DNA from: a plasmid
Reading direction: 5' to 3' (one strand)
Sequence record: NZ_CP024444.1
DNA length: 64,000 bases
Shown: positions 48,542-51,993 of the stretch, one piece after another
Position numbering within the stretch: the first letter of the stretch is position 1
Layout of the letters: every line of letters starts with the position of its first letter
The notes under the pieces: model-generated
Database searches by the model: none
What the model was told of the DNA's origin: nothing
The model's input: the letters and a program-made list of their open reading frames with translations, nothing else
Position numbers and translations under genes: made by a program

Positions 48542-48814
48542 TTACAACTCGAAACGGTTATTGCGTACCCTTGTGTGCTTGGTGTTCCCAACAAGGAAAC
48601 TTCTAATTAAAGGCCATGTGTAGCGCATAGGCATCTTTAAAAACTTTTCAAAAATAATCACATATATCCAAACAGCCAATGTGAAGATAAACCACCACAT
48701 ACTATGATGAATATTAAATCCAATAATGCTTATAAAAAGCACCACAAACGGCCACGGACTAATAAATAAAATTTTGGGTTCGTGGCTAAATTGACTCCAG
48801 TGTTCGTTTGCCAT
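48542..48814 (-). CDS. small integral membrane protein (90 aa); by position and size IcmT/TraK-like
   Basis: Two hydrophobic helices. Lies immediately downstream of the DotB-like ATPase, as traK follows traJ in IncI plasmids. No sequence-level proof. Confidence 0.35.
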   Translation of the reverse strand: MANEHWSQFSHEPKILFISPWPFVVLFISIIGFNIHHSMWWFIFTLAVWIYVIIFEKFLKMPMRYTWPLIRSFLVGNTKHTRVRNNRFEL

Positions 48815-48842
48815 AATTTCTTATCCTAGAACAATCATAAGT

Positions 48843-50162
48843 CTAAACACTCTCTAATTTTTCAAACGTTTCATTATCAAGTTCACTATCGTCTTCTACT
48901 AATCGACGATAGCTAAGTTCATCAATGATGCCATCAGAGAGCAGTTTGTCCGCTTGTCTTTTAAAGTTGATACTGCCAGTAATTCCTTCATCCATAATCG
49001 CGTCAATTTTTCTTGCTAAAATATCAGGCTGTTTAGCAAACCGCAGTAGATATTTACGCAATCCTTCTTTTAAAACCAAAACTTCTCTAACAGCAAAACG
49101 CTTGCCGTTTACATCACGTATTAGTTTTTGTGCGACCAATACCCTTGCTGAGTCAATAATATCAAATGCTTTTTCACCCTGAATTTCTGCAGGGAAACGG
49201 CTTAATAAACGTGGAATAATTGCTTTGATATTTGTGGCGTGCGTTGTTGCAAAAACAGGGTGACCAGTTTGGGAAAGCTCAATAGCCGCTTGCACCGTAG
49301 CACCATTTCGCAACTCACCTACTAAGACTAACGCTGGAAACCGTCGTAGTGCTGCTTGGTTGGCGATATCGAAACTCCGTATATGACCACCTAACCCGAT
49401 TGCACTTTGAGATACTATAGAATGAGTAGACCGTATATTGTGATATGAAAACTCGATTGGCTCTTCATGTGTCACAATATTACCTTGGATGATGGTATTG
49501 TTTTCCAAAATATAGCGTATCGTTGCCGCAAGCGTAGTCGTTTTACCTGAACCTGTAGAGCCAGCAATAATCACAAAACCCGAGTCAATAATACAACTTT
49601 TAATAAAATCTTCAGGAATGTTCAGCGACTCATAATGTGGGGGTGTTACTGGTAGTGGGCGTAGCGTTAACTGAAAGCCATTAGGCTCAATAACGGTATC
49701 ACATCCTGCCAGCTCATAACGAAAACGCTTTTGAAGTAATCGACCAAAAGTATCACGTTCCCCATCACTATTTAACTCATTGATCTTTGATAAGCCACTT
49801 AAAGGTTCGCCATCTTTAATCATTGAGATTGCAGACTCAATCCCAGTGATTAATTTAACCATATTTACACATTCACCCGTATCAATGGTGCGATGGGTAA
49901 CAGCCATTAATTTGCCGTTGACAATGGCTGCTACAGGAATACCAGGCATGATAAAGATATCAGAAACCTCGTGCGACATGATTTCGTTAAACAGCATGCG
50001 TATTTCACGCATATCACTAAAGCGTTCAGGGTCGGTATATTTCGTAACCCAATTTATAGCTGTTAATGAACTTGCTGAAATCTTAATAGTTTCTTGTTTT
50101 TCCTCGCCTCTATCATTAGTGCTTGCTTTTGCAAATACAGGCTGTGCCACTAAAGTCTTCAT
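48843..50162 (-). CDS. PilT/DotB-family secretion ATPase (TraJ/DotB-like), 439 aa
   Basis: Walker A GSTGSGKTTTLAA, IVTHEEPIEF (aligns with PilT TIEDPIEF) and ALRRFPALVLVGELRNGATVQAAIELSQTGHPVFATTHATN (aligns with PilT ALREDPDIILVGEMRD...GHLVFGTLHT). Has extra N- and C-terminal extensions. Confidence 0.85.
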   Translation of the reverse strand: MKTLVAQPVFAKASTNDRGEEKQETIKISASSLTAINWVTKYTDPERFSDMREIRMLFNEIMSHEVSDIFIMPGIPVAAIVNGKLMAVTHRTIDTGECVNMVKLITGIESAISMIKDGEPLSGLSKINELNSDGERDTFGRLLQKRFRYELAGCDTVIEPNGFQLTLRPLPVTPPHYESLNIPEDFIKSCIIDSGFVIIAGSTGSGKTTTLAATIRYILENNTIIQGNIVTHEEPIEFSYHNIRSTHSIVSQSAIGLGGHIRSFDIANQAALRRFPALVLVGELRNGATVQAAIELSQTGHPVFATTHATNIKAIIPRLLSRFPAEIQGEKAFDIIDSARVLVAQKLIRDVNGKRFAVREVLVLKEGLRKYLLRFAKQPDILARKIDAIMDEGITGSINFKRQADKLLSDGIIDELSYRRLVEDDSELDNETFEKLESV

Positions 50163-51457
50163 TGGCCATGCGTCCTATTGTATTCATCAATTTCAGCTGG
50201 GGTCATGACATGAAGAGCTGGTTTAGAACTATTGGTGTAAGTGCTAACCGTTACGCCAGTATTGCCCGGCACCACTGCAACGGCAGCATTCCCTGGAACC
50301 ACTGTCGTTGTTGTTGTGCTTACAACAGCATTGGTAGCATTGGTAGCATTGGTGGTAGTTGCCGCAGTATTACTGATACTAACAGGTCGCTGCTCAATAG
50401 TGTATTTGGTTTCCAAAGGATTTGGTGTTGTTACAATACCAGTGTTATTCAACCAAGGTTGTGCGCCATTTGCTTTTAAGTCATTATTGCGTACATTTTG
50501 CATATACTTCATTAGTGCTGGCGAAAAGGTTTCCTCGATTGGGGTTTGTGATACCACGCCTGATTTCCCATCATTTTTTAACGTCACAGCACCCAAGCCA
50601 ACATATTTAGAATTGTTGTATCTAGGCTTAAACGGTTGCGTGATGAATGATGGTAACACTTCGATTTGCAATAACTGTTCATCAATTCTTAAGCGATCAC
50701 CGTCATTATTGTCATACAGATTATAGCTGTTAATAACAGGCGAGTTAATTTTGCCGTCTAACACAAACTCATGGAAACGTATCATCCCAATATAGTCACG
50801 GTTAAGGCGATCCATAGCCTGTTGTAAAATACCATTAGCTTGAGCCAATCCTAAACGCCAACCCTCTTTGGTTGCATCCTCCCATAATTTACGCTCATGA
50901 CTTGTTTTTGGATAAATCTCTTTGCTCACGAATGCATAATCAGGAAATGCATTAGACTCATAGCTAAAGTTTAAGTAATCACGCCAGTTTGGTGCTGTGG
51001 TGGAAAAACGTGCCTGTTTAACAATATTATAAATTGCGCGTGAAAGGCGAATTTGCATGTGATTGTCTTGGTTATACAGATTGCGTGCTTCAGTGATAAC
51101 AGGAGGGACGACACGCTGTTGTATCATTAAGGGTTGGAAATTATATATGGCATCTAAATTTCGAGAGTTTGTTTGTACTGCCCATTGTATTTGTTTAAAA
51201 CGCATGCTCATGGCTGCACGAATAGCAGTCATTTTTGCATATTCCATCATGGCTTTATCACGCTCGGTACTTGCCATATCAATCATGGCATTTGTTGCAC
51301 CGCCACGGACTAACTGTTTTTGATAGCTTAAAAAATCTTCTGCATTAGTGATGTTTTCAGGGCTACCAGCGGCATGACTAGCCGCTGACAAACTTGTCAA
51401 AATCACACCAAATAATGCAGCTACTCTTTTGGATGAATTACCCATGGTTTGCCTCAT
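50159..51457 (-). CDS. secreted protein (432 aa) in the DotC/TraI position of the module, with a Thr/Asn/Val-rich C-terminal tail
   Basis: Signal peptide (VAALFGVILTSLSAASHAAG). The call rests mainly on gene order between the DotD-like and DotB-like genes, with 4-bp and 1-bp overlaps to its neighbours. Confidence 0.4.
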   Translation of the reverse strand: MRQTMGNSSKRVAALFGVILTSLSAASHAAGSPENITNAEDFLSYQKQLVRGGATNAMIDMASTERDKAMMEYAKMTAIRAAMSMRFKQIQWAVQTNSRNLDAIYNFQPLMIQQRVVPPVITEARNLYNQDNHMQIRLSRAIYNIVKQARFSTTAPNWRDYLNFSYESNAFPDYAFVSKEIYPKTSHERKLWEDATKEGWRLGLAQANGILQQAMDRLNRDYIGMIRFHEFVLDGKINSPVINSYNLYDNNDGDRLRIDEQLLQIEVLPSFITQPFKPRYNNSKYVGLGAVTLKNDGKSGVVSQTPIEETFSPALMKYMQNVRNNDLKANGAQPWLNNTGIVTTPNPLETKYTIEQRPVSISNTAATTTNATNATNAVVSTTTTTVVPGNAAVAVVPGNTGVTVSTYTNSSKPALHVMTPAEIDEYNRTHGQ

Positions 51458-51993
51458 TATCTGTAAATAAGTGTGATTACTTTATTGTTTTTATCTAAGC
51501 TGATAGTCGCTTCATTCCCTAATTGCGCTGAAATTACCATGACAGCATTTTCGGGCGTAGTCCAGTTATTTGTAAAATTAACCGTACCTAAATCTCTTGA
51601 CTGACCAACTTCTAAGAAACGGTAGCCATATCGAATAGCGATAGAAGTTAATAAAGGTTGTGGCTTACCAATATAGTCAATAGCTACTTGGTCTTCTTCA
51701 AAACTACGTTGACGTGATTCTAGCGTTGCTGAATATTGTTGACGGTACTTGACGAGCATCTTTTGAGCTTCAAGTGCGCGTTGGCTTTCTTGAGAGATAA
51801 TTTCTAAAGCGTTTTCAGTTTGGGGATAAACACCGCTTTTAGAAAATAAGATGCCGTTGCTAGTTGCATTCGGTGTTGATGTATAATTATGTCCACTCCA
51901 ACCAAGTTGCGTACAACCTGTAGCAGATAAGATGGCACCACAAAACAAAAGACTTGCTAAAGTCTTGTTAACTTTTTCGCTATAACTTTTCAT
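51457..51993 (-). CDS. DotD/TraH-like outer-membrane lipoprotein (178 aa)
   Basis: Lipobox LSATGC. The C-terminal region IAIRYGYRFLEVGQSRDLGTVNFT...ISLDKNNKVITLIYR aligns in pattern with the Legionella DotD C-terminus (IAKAAHFRFRVLGKSP...VVELRYA). Confidence 0.55.
   Translation of the reverse strand: MKSYSEKVNKTLASLLFCGAILSATGCTQLGWSGHNYTSTPNATSNGILFSKSGVYPQTENALEIISQESQRALEAQKMLVKYRQQYSATLESRQRSFEEDQVAIDYIGKPQPLLTSIAIRYGYRFLEVGQSRDLGTVNFTNNWTTPENAVMVISAQLGNEATISLDKNNKVITLIYR

Follow-up and report, generated by a model that had tools for sequence, protein, structure and literature searches.

An intact seven-gene operon of a probable MPF_I (type IVB) mating apparatus, split over a Moraxella osloensis-type megaplasmid

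The subject of this analysis is a 64,000-nucleotide stretch of plasmid DNA (sequence record NZ_CP024444.1; the window), and in it four minus-strand genes at 48,542–51,993, which a model-made annotation of the letters without database searches (the sequence-only reading) had described as an isolated type IVB secretion core fragment in IncI order. We conclude with good confidence that these genes are the first cistrons of a seven-gene operon in an MPF_I (type IVB, IncI/Dot-Icm-like) mating apparatus, carried by a ~250-kb megaplasmid of the type of M. osloensis plasmid pMOXF1 (CP040258.1, 248 kb), with a transfer region that is split. The gene identities, operon structure, synteny and intactness were demonstrated, as was the presence of the remaining parts on a near-identical plasmid. 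Lengths below are in amino acids (aa) for proteins, and the operon, from its first gene to its terminator, is made up as follows.

51457..51993, minus strand: dotD/traH, outer-membrane lipoprotein, 178 aa, first operon gene; assigned from Pfam DotD, a lipobox and a homologue in plasmid pAS62-1
50159..51445, minus strand: dotC/traI, outer-membrane core-complex protein, 428 aa from Met5; the longest open reading frame (ORF), to 51457, gives 432 aa
48843..50162, minus strand: dotB/traJ, hexameric secretion ATPase, 439 aa; 4-bp overlap with dotC
48542..48814, minus strand: probable icmT/traK, small inner-membrane protein, 90 aa, two hydrophobic segments; positioned after dotB as in IncI
47397..48476, minus strand: parM/stbA-like actin-fold ATPase, 359 aa; 65 bp after icmT
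46028..47380, minus strand: orfX, protein of unassigned function, 450 aa
44383..46011, minus strand: dotM/icmP/trbA, membrane subunit of the coupling-protein complex, 542 aa, last operon gene; four transmembrane segments and a cytoplasmic DotM_C domain
44332..44360, minus strand: intrinsic-terminator-like hairpin, 12-bp stem followed by a T run, 23 nt past the dotM stop codon

The product of the first gene scores 29.1 bits against Pfam DotD (gathering score 27), matches the NCBIfam DotD model (E = 4.6e-4) and is 34% identical (E = 1e-28) to the annotated DotD/TraH lipoprotein of the Acinetobacter plasmid pAS62-1; its N-terminus reads as a signal peptide with a lipobox-like ...LSATGC. The DotD-like lipoprotein of the sequence-only reading is thereby upheld. 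For the second gene that reading had gone no further than a DotC-like position. The matches to Pfam T4SS_TraI (E = 1.2e-48; 165.6 bits vs a gathering score of 26.1) and to Legionella DotC in the PDB (6x62; E = 3.2e-35) show that the 432-aa product is a true DotC/TraI homologue, beyond mere DotC position. Its signal is of the signal-peptidase-I type, and its C-terminus bears a lineage-specific T/N/V-rich extension of ~160 aa (window 50159-50640) that the Acinetobacter and IncI homologues, at 272 aa, do not have. Within the extension lies a tandem 9-nt repeat (50327-50353). pMOXF1 differs in this part of DotC by a 3-codon indel.

Small gene overlaps had been taken as part of the IncI-like arrangement. 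The 4-bp overlap between dotC and dotB is real, and the 1-bp overlap between dotD and dotC is probably a longest-ORF artefact, because Met5 of dotC (the second ATG) is preceded at 6 nt by a GAGG Shine-Dalgarno sequence and gene callers place the start there (428 aa) in all eight independent contigs shown. The arrangement itself held up: the four minus-strand ORFs are present at 48,542–51,993, and an annotated IncI plasmid shows the matching order traH, traI, traJ, followed by a 96-aa ORF. Antisense ORFs within the four genes (e.g. 50241-50726, plus strand) were rejected as artefacts, as they overlap well-supported genes and are called in none of the eight contigs.

The ATPase was correctly recognised from its Walker A motif and His box. 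It matches T2SSE (E = 3e-26), its catalytic motifs are intact (Walker A, GSTGSGKT; Asp box; His box), and among NCBIfam models DotB (TIGR02524, 2.5e-58) ranks above TraJ (5.5e-52) and PilT (TIGR01420, 2.5e-49). Against the PDB, DotB scores 226 bits, the best PilT 108 bits and VirB11 19 bits. Because its score falls under the equivalog cutoff of 463, the protein is best described as a divergent family member. The match to PilT models is what would favour a scenario that the sequence-only reading had itself raised, in which the ATPase is an orphan PilT/PilU of type IV pilus origin, with unrelated proteins on either side. We regard this as almost certainly wrong: the DotB and TraJ models outscore PilT, the hidden Markov model searches recovered DotD and DotC (1.2e-48) beside the gene, with the probable IcmT and DotM further along, and the window is without pilus genes.

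The 90-aa product is probably IcmT/TraK. It is 26-30% identical to its Acinetobacter counterparts, with which it has a C-terminal motif in common, and the IcmT_TraK model is the top family for all three position-matched proteins from related plasmids. The earlier call of an IcmT-like protein survives as probable; its own score is considered below.

The last gene of the operon encodes a DotM homologue (Pfam DotM_C, 3.8e-32; NCBIfam DotM_IcmP, 2.4e-27; PDB IcmP(DotM), 2.8e-12) that is 28.6% identical over residues 1-494 to the collinear pAS62-1 gene. The hairpin behind it is the strongest terminator-like site within 41000-53300. Owing to this terminator and the tight spacing on one strand, dotD, dotC, dotB, icmT, the parM-like gene, orfX and dotM/trbA are one seven-gene operon. 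The view of the four genes as an isolated core fragment is not supported, since DotM is encoded two genes downstream of the four-gene cluster in the same operon, and DotA and two IcmX-fold genes lie elsewhere in the window.

The DotD-DotM operon is found again on a near-identical plasmid. Positions 147,845-202,269 of pMOXF1 are collinear with window positions 1-52206 at ~99.6% identity and the remainder of the window matches Acinetobacter baumannii plasmids, so that the entire window reads as plasmid DNA. As the sequence-only reading had stated, DotO, DotL, DotG, DotH and a relaxase are absent from the 64 kb, and no DotI was found there either. Its advice to look for the missing genes on a plasmid proved decisive. 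A second block of pMOXF1, at 72-110 kb and ~100 kb from the dotD-dotM operon, is collinear with the transfer operon of pAS62-1 and encodes DotI (30% identity), DotH (42% identity), DotG (C-terminal domain, NCBIfam 2e-12), a 1069-aa DotO-like ATPase (33% identity over its full length, 5e-175) and a 981-aa TrbC/DotL coupling protein (NF041447, 1.6e-88, with TraG-D_C and TrwB_AAD_bind), along with an M23 peptidase and an SLT-domain protein. None of these second-block proteins (DotI, DotH, DotG, DotO-like, TrbC/DotL, M23, SLT) has a match in the window. In the pMOXF1 record, all the type IVB secretion system (T4BSS) genes discussed here are labelled 'hypothetical protein'.

Comparison with annotated relatives places the operon among transfer systems. 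The nearest annotated relative of DotC (35% identity) is encoded by pAS62-1 of Acinetobacter seifertii, a plasmid typed MPF_I and belonging to the pA297-3/pAB3 family. Its genes run from DotD and DotC through the ATPase, a protein of 84 aa, ParM/StbA and a protein of 249 aa to a DotM-like protein, and DotI, DotH, DotG, a 1090-aa ATPase and the coupling protein are divergently transcribed and directly adjoin the DotD-DotM genes. Five of the seven operon proteins in the window are 28-35% identical to the collinear pAS62-1 genes. The order DotD, DotC, DotB, 84-87-aa protein, ParM, X, DotM is common to pAS62-1, an A. corruptisaponis plasmid (where it occurs twice) and a metagenome-assembled genome (MAG); DotI, DotH and DotG are divergently adjacent in pAS62-1 and the MAG, and the A. 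corruptisaponis loci extend only to DotI. The A. corruptisaponis plasmid (NZ_CP125670.1, 241 kb) carries two seemingly identical copies of the dotD-dotM region, at 92772-113407 and 151297-171932. Similarly, pALWED1.1 has the order stbA, traJ, traI, traH, then traM, traN, traO, traU, trbC (PMC8490738), and pCl107 encodes MPFI (PMC10117892). The pA297-3 and pALWED1.1 families are described as conjugative, and transfer has been experimentally shown for pA297-3 (PMC8490738). Set against these contiguous regions, the pMOXF1 lineage has broken an ancestral transfer region at both ends of the dotD-dotM operon.

The actin-like gene within the operon needs separate consideration. Its product matches Pfam MreB-like_C, ParM_N and ALP_N and NCBIfam ParM (1.3e-14), its phosphate-1, phosphate-2 and adenosine motifs are intact, and orthologues of 27-30% identity occupy the same operon position in pAS62-1, A. 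corruptisaponis and the MAG. Because it holds the same position in Acinetobacter conjugative plasmids, it is a conserved member of this operon type. No parC-like repeat array was found anywhere in 44200-52210, and orfX, the next gene downstream, matches neither ParR nor any other family in Pfam or NCBIfam; pMOXF1 encodes a separate ParA/ParB pair. The ParM of plasmid R1 boosts conjugation and has the relaxase, the coupling protein and the VirB4-like ATPase as binding partners (PMC4949242). A conjugation-linked role for the ParM-like ATPase is plausible by analogy with R1, given that parC and ParR are missing and that pMOXF1 has its own ParA/ParB. Going further, conservation of the gene between icmT and dotM across Moraxellaceae MPF_I lineages of ~28% identity, again combined with the missing parC/ParR and the separate ParAB, leads us to propose tentatively that the ParM/StbA ATPase may be a dedicated component of such type IVB conjugation machines rather than a partition protein, an idea that we consider possible, if doubtful. 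The ATPase, with orfX, might then position or activate the DotL-DotM coupling complex, or bring the plasmid to the complex. If true, such a role would bear on how relaxase-less plasmids initiate transfer.

The N-terminal ~260 aa of the orfX product form a structured domain, which is followed by a low-complexity stretch of polar/acidic composition and a short motif at the C-terminus. It has no match in Pfam, NCBIfam, PHROGs, PADLOC or the PDB sequences. A word-indexed search returned only its own cluster among 5.8 billion proteins, and an exhaustive search returned three remote relatives among 1.84 billion, of the same architecture and without domains. All four proteins have the acidic low-complexity linker and a conserved C-terminal motif (...PSNA...). 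Homology to the 216-249-aa proteins at the same Acinetobacter position is not demonstrable (20% identity), and the AlphaFold2 (AF2) model is unusable, with a predicted local distance difference test (pLDDT) score of 37.

The operon and its surroundings bear on a suggestion of the sequence-only reading that DotB, DotC and DotD form a sub-complex repurposed outside type IV secretion, working with neighbouring orphan genes or with the actin-like ATPase. A 14-kb run of large homologue-less genes is indeed present in the same window, and the ParM-like gene sits inside the operon without a parC site. However, the cluster is accompanied by DotM, DotA and IcmX-fold genes, the operon is syntenic, ParM included, with complete MPF_I systems, the orphans at 8109-22081 are absent from those relatives and are thus not an obligatory partner, and the other core genes exist at the second pMOXF1 locus. 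We consider repurposing very unlikely; the actin-like ATPase, in particular, is better seen as the conserved operon member that it is in conjugative Acinetobacter plasmids.

A second set of genes, an inner-membrane channel protein among their products, lies on the plus strand of the window, with the orphan run on one side and a topoisomerase gene on the other.

22191..25424, plus strand: three conserved DotA-module genes of unassigned function, 220, 476 and 337 aa; signal/transmembrane-bearing or A/S/T-rich
25571..26770, plus strand: IcmX-fold (TraW-position) secreted protein 1, 399 aa
26802..28106, plus strand: IcmX-fold secreted protein 2, 434 aa; paralogue of protein 1
28501..34637, plus strand: seven unannotated genes between the IcmX-fold pair and dotA, 378, 444, 148, 267, 156, 148 and 519 aa
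34788..37883, plus strand: dotA/traY, inner-membrane channel protein, 1031 aa, at least 6 transmembrane segments
41537..44206, minus strand: plasmid type IA topoisomerase with C-terminal zinc ribbons, 889 aa; separate transcription unit
8109-22081, plus strand: five large co-oriented orphan genes, 755, 908, 1498, 878 and 498 aa; predicted soluble, without signal peptides

DotA matches TIGR04346 DotA_TraY over the full-length profile (E = 8.3e-56; 189.9 bits vs a cutoff of 100) and is 35% identical to the annotated DotA/TraY of pAS62-1. The two IcmX-fold proteins resemble each other over nearly their full length (BLASTP of the 434-aa vs the 399-aa protein: E = 3e-28, 25% identity), with conserved Cys positions, and the gene pair is kept together in pAS62-1, in Psychrobacter and in a metagenomic contig. 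The topology of the model (N-terminal helices, mixed core, C-terminal helix) agrees with the published IcmX description (PMC12501162). Among PDB sequences IcmX was out of reach for a profile built from the family, so the IcmX assignment holds at the level of the fold only. Together with the operon, the window encodes DotD, DotC, DotB, a probable IcmT, DotM, DotA and two IcmX-fold proteins.

The genes between and before these are largely conserved as well. Neither the three genes at 22191-25424 nor the seven at 28501-34637 have family matches. Homologues of the former (220, 476 and 337 aa) are found, with their order kept, in pAS62-1 and/or a Psychrobacter contig, and four successive signal-/transmembrane-bearing ORFs (22969-28106) pair with four successive pAS62-1 genes. 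Among the latter, the 378-, 444-, 156-, 148- (32629-33075) and 519-aa proteins have homologues beside DotA in the Psychrobacter contig, where 22191-37883 is mostly conserved. Part of what had been described as a neighbouring ORFan block thus contains DotA and the two IcmX-fold genes; the description stands for 8109-22081, where no credible match was found in Pfam, NCBIfam, PHROGs or PADLOC and none in pAS62-1. A PDB sequence search with the concatenated 755-, 908- and 1498-aa orphans found nothing, and a search of 5.8 billion proteins gave the 1498-aa orphan no relative of less than 90% identity. The topoisomerase matches Pfam Topoisom_bac (1.3e-97) and Toprim and is 32% identical to the pAS62-1 topoisomerase.

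These orphans are also the natural starting point for another view of the system, as a T4BSS that mainly or additionally injects proteins in the manner of Dot/Icm. The DotM_C domain binds acidic effector signals in Legionella. DotM of the window carries this cytoplasmic domain, no relaxase is recognisable, and the orphans at 8109-22081 are candidate substrates in so far as they are predicted soluble without signal peptides and the 908-aa protein has a strongly acidic tail (12 D/E in the last 30 residues). The closest characterised relatives, however, are conjugative plasmids, the coupling protein is of the IncI TrbC type, the operon in pMOXF1 is flanked by ArdC-like and SSB leading-region genes, and the acidic tail of one protein is weak evidence. 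We judge protein translocation unlikely as the main explanation, and it would be compatible with conjugation; to call the orphan proteins translocated cargo would be speculation.

Both gene sets are intact. None of the seven operon genes, nor dotA or the IcmX-fold genes, is truncated or interrupted by an internal stop or frameshift. Across the operon, the ratio of non-synonymous to synonymous polymorphism (pN/pS) against two independent variants is 0.23 (33 synonymous, 28 non-synonymous changes) and 0.16 (12 and 7), again without stops or frameshifts; the operon genes are under purifying selection. Public assemblies contain the exact DotB protein in 105 blocks, and all eight of the places shown have the same gene order. 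The eight contigs examined have the same arrangement at 99.4-100% identity.

The upstream border of the operon was noted in the sequence-only reading for an IS982 insertion sequence (IS) directly beyond dotD. The element is there, and ends 209 bp upstream of dotD.

52203..53190, plus strand: IS982-family insertion sequence, 988 bp, with a 293-aa transposase and perfect 17-bp terminal inverted repeats
51994..52202, minus strand: retained native sequence between dotD and the IS, 209 bp, identical to pMOXF1 up to 52206

Its transposase matches Pfam DDE_Tnp_1_3 (1.3e-21) and is 72% identical to that of the annotated IS982-like ISPsma1. Collinearity with pMOXF1 stops at the element. Metagenomic contig L013 is 100% identical across the operon and has the same IS982 copy at the same site, with a distal flank unlike that of either the window or pMOXF1, and other variants of the operon have a pMOXF1-type upstream region with ArdC-like and helix-turn-helix genes. 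For these reasons the IS982 is a recurrent, recombination-prone junction and not the remains of a deleted T4BSS. Upstream of dotD, a weak sigma-70-like site (52113-52084) matches at 9 of 12 positions; it is only a possible promoter, because the scan overall was not above chance (35 sites vs 35.6 expected).

Acinetobacter baumannii plasmids match the window beyond the IS982 at 99.5-99.6% identity, a sign of recent Acinetobacter-Moraxella plasmid gene flow at this junction. The accessory module concerned (53189-62000, minus strand) comprises a UvrA paralogue, NDH-2, S-formylglutathione hydrolase, a DUF3422 gene and a class III alcohol/formaldehyde dehydrogenase.

Several observations weigh against a working mating apparatus, or against parts of the assignment. 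Most of the NCBIfam matches score under their equivalog cutoffs, and that of IcmT_TraK (NF038220) is weak (E = 1.3e-3; 18.9 bits vs a cutoff of 40). DotC has no N-terminal lipoprotein Cys of the kind present in Legionella DotC and IncI TraI. Expression could be affected by the IS982, which from 209 bp before dotD stands in place of the native upstream region. The presence of a DotI/H/G/O/L block on the window's own replicon is extrapolated from pMOXF1. MOB-suite types pMOXF1 as 'non-mobilizable', neither a relaxase nor an oriT can be recognised in the window or in what pMOXF1 and pAS62-1 have in common as backbone, and a literature search found no transfer experiment reported for M. osloensis plasmids of the pMOXF1 type. 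The backbone comparison of pMOXF1 with pAS62-1 likewise yielded no candidate with a recognisable nuclease or relaxase family. The missing relaxase does not exclude function, because the conjugative Acinetobacter relatives are likewise without one: none has been identified in the pA297-3 or the pALWED1.1 family (PMC8490738).

Some further genes touch on the search for DNA-processing functions. Ribbon-helix-helix proteins are typical relaxosome accessory factors. At 1247-3941 (minus strand) the window encodes a C-5 cytosine DNA methyltransferase and, after it, a protein of 336 aa that carries an Arc/ribbon-helix-helix domain at its N-terminus, and pMOXF1 has three Arc-domain paralogues; these may be relevant to an oriT/relaxase search. 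Conserved genes of unassigned function that pMOXF1 has in common with Acinetobacter plasmids include those at 71949-73604 and 100626-101636. Upstream of dotD in pMOXF1 sit ArdC-like, SSB and pentapeptide-repeat 'leading region' genes.

Some of this counter-evidence would also favour decay, which the sequence-only reading had put forward and which is taken here as a non-functional leftover of a conjugative T4BSS after IS-mediated rearrangement. The transfer region is fragmented relative to the Acinetobacter relatives, IS982 abuts the operon, a TnpB element stands between the gene at 38072-39619 (directly downstream of dotA) and the topoisomerase gene, pMOXF1 is typed as above, and no relaxase was found. 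On the other side, no operon gene is shortened, nor are dotA and the IcmX-fold genes, the catalytic motifs are intact, the pN/pS of 0.16-0.23 comes without a single variant with a stop or frameshift, and the arrangement is the same in all eight contigs. Among Acinetobacter plasmids for which conjugation is reported, too, pAS62-1 is typed non-mobilizable and others are without a known relaxase. We rate decay as quite unlikely.

The TnpB gene itself (39764-40882, plus strand; IS605 OrfB/Cas12f-like TNB domain) has no tnpA beside it. It is present in the window, in pMOXF1 and in contigs L013 and L015 and is absent at this site in other variants, and pMOXF1 has two further TnpB copies of ~80-82% identity.

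Combined, these data support the interpretation that an ancestrally contiguous transfer region, as in the Acinetobacter megaplasmids, was broken at both ends of the operon and came to occupy at least three loci. The first would be the dotD-dotM operon. The second would be a 'protochannel' module of DotA and the IcmX-fold proteins, 7-26 kb away in the same window, and the third the block of DotI, DotH, DotG, the DotO-like ATPase and DotL/TrbC, which lies outside the window and ~100 kb away in pMOXF1. By homology with Legionella Dot/Icm and IncI Tra, DotC and DotD would form an outer-membrane core complex with DotH and DotG, and DotA and IcmX a central channel; DotB would be a hexameric ATPase docking on DotO, and DotM with DotL would make up a coupling complex that recruits the substrate. 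The substrate would most likely be plasmid DNA bound to a not-yet-recognised relaxase. We infer that the system would be active and conjugative.

The system is a divergent, rearranged and hitherto unannotated member of the Moraxellaceae megaplasmid MPF_I (type IVB) conjugation systems. Its practical value is in annotation: a widespread, resistance-carrying plasmid type with a near-complete MPF_I set is currently called non-mobilizable. The cargo of pMOXF1 includes msr(E)/mph(E) macrolide resistance and cadmium and copper resistance genes. Together with the near-complete MPF_I set, the 105 blocks with DotB and the A. baumannii-like module, these resistance genes suggest that the pMOXF1-type plasmid is a self-transmissible vehicle between Moraxella and Acinetobacter that current typing tools overlook. 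The window additionally gives the Moraxellaceae MPF_I group a member that is both deeply diverged and rearranged, and provides a second, independent indication that the actin-like ATPase belongs to the conserved operon. It also provides a case in which IcmX-like proteins were identified by fold where sequence models fail.

Among the remaining contents of the plasmid, a 504-aa membrane protein of the fused MFS/spermidine synthase family (4834-6348, minus strand; NF037959, 1e-20, above cutoff) is adjoined by small uncharacterised genes. A Tn7-like module and a type I restriction-modification system are also on pMOXF1. Rfam and tRNA scans of the window found no RNA genes.

Known systems resemble the Moraxella system to different degrees. 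With ParMRC of the R1 type, the window gene has in common an actin-fold ATPase with intact nucleotide-binding motifs; it differs in being without an upstream parC repeat array and a recognisable ParR, and in lying inside a T4BSS operon. The likeness to IncI1 (R64-type) plasmids is broader, comprising the order and small overlaps of traH, traI, traJ and traK, a DotC that is 26-27% identical to TraI, and equivalents of TrbA, TrbC and TraY. IncI differs from the Moraxella system in its contiguous tra/trb genes, its MOBP NikB relaxase and its TraI, a 272-aa lipoprotein, and no actin-like gene follows traK there. As for Dot/Icm, homologues of DotD, DotC, DotB, DotM, DotA and IcmX and a probable one of IcmT are encoded in the window and of DotI, DotH, DotG, DotO and DotL in pMOXF1, and in both cases the genes are distributed over separate loci with dotD, dotC and dotB adjacent. 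The context differs, being plasmid conjugation here and a chromosomal virulence system there; no IcmS/IcmW/IcmQ/IcmR-type adaptor was detected here, and no known effectors are present.

The Acinetobacter MPF_I megaplasmids (pA297-3/pAB3/pAS62-1; pALWED1.1 III-4a) are set apart by a protein identity of only 28-42% and by a DotI/H/G/O/L block that is divergently adjacent to the operon, whereas in pMOXF1 it is ~100 kb off. Moraxella DotC has ~160 aa of extra C-terminal region and no lipobox Cys, Moraxella orfX is ~200 aa longer with no confident alignment, and the Moraxella window has the 14-kb lineage-specific orphan run. Nonetheless, the two groups agree in having no recognisable relaxase, in the DotA/TraY gene, the IcmX-fold pair, the M23 peptidase, the SLT domain protein and the topoisomerase, in the order DotD/TraH, DotC/TraI, DotB/TraJ, small membrane protein, ParM/StbA, X, DotM/TrbA, and in the host family, the Moraxellaceae.

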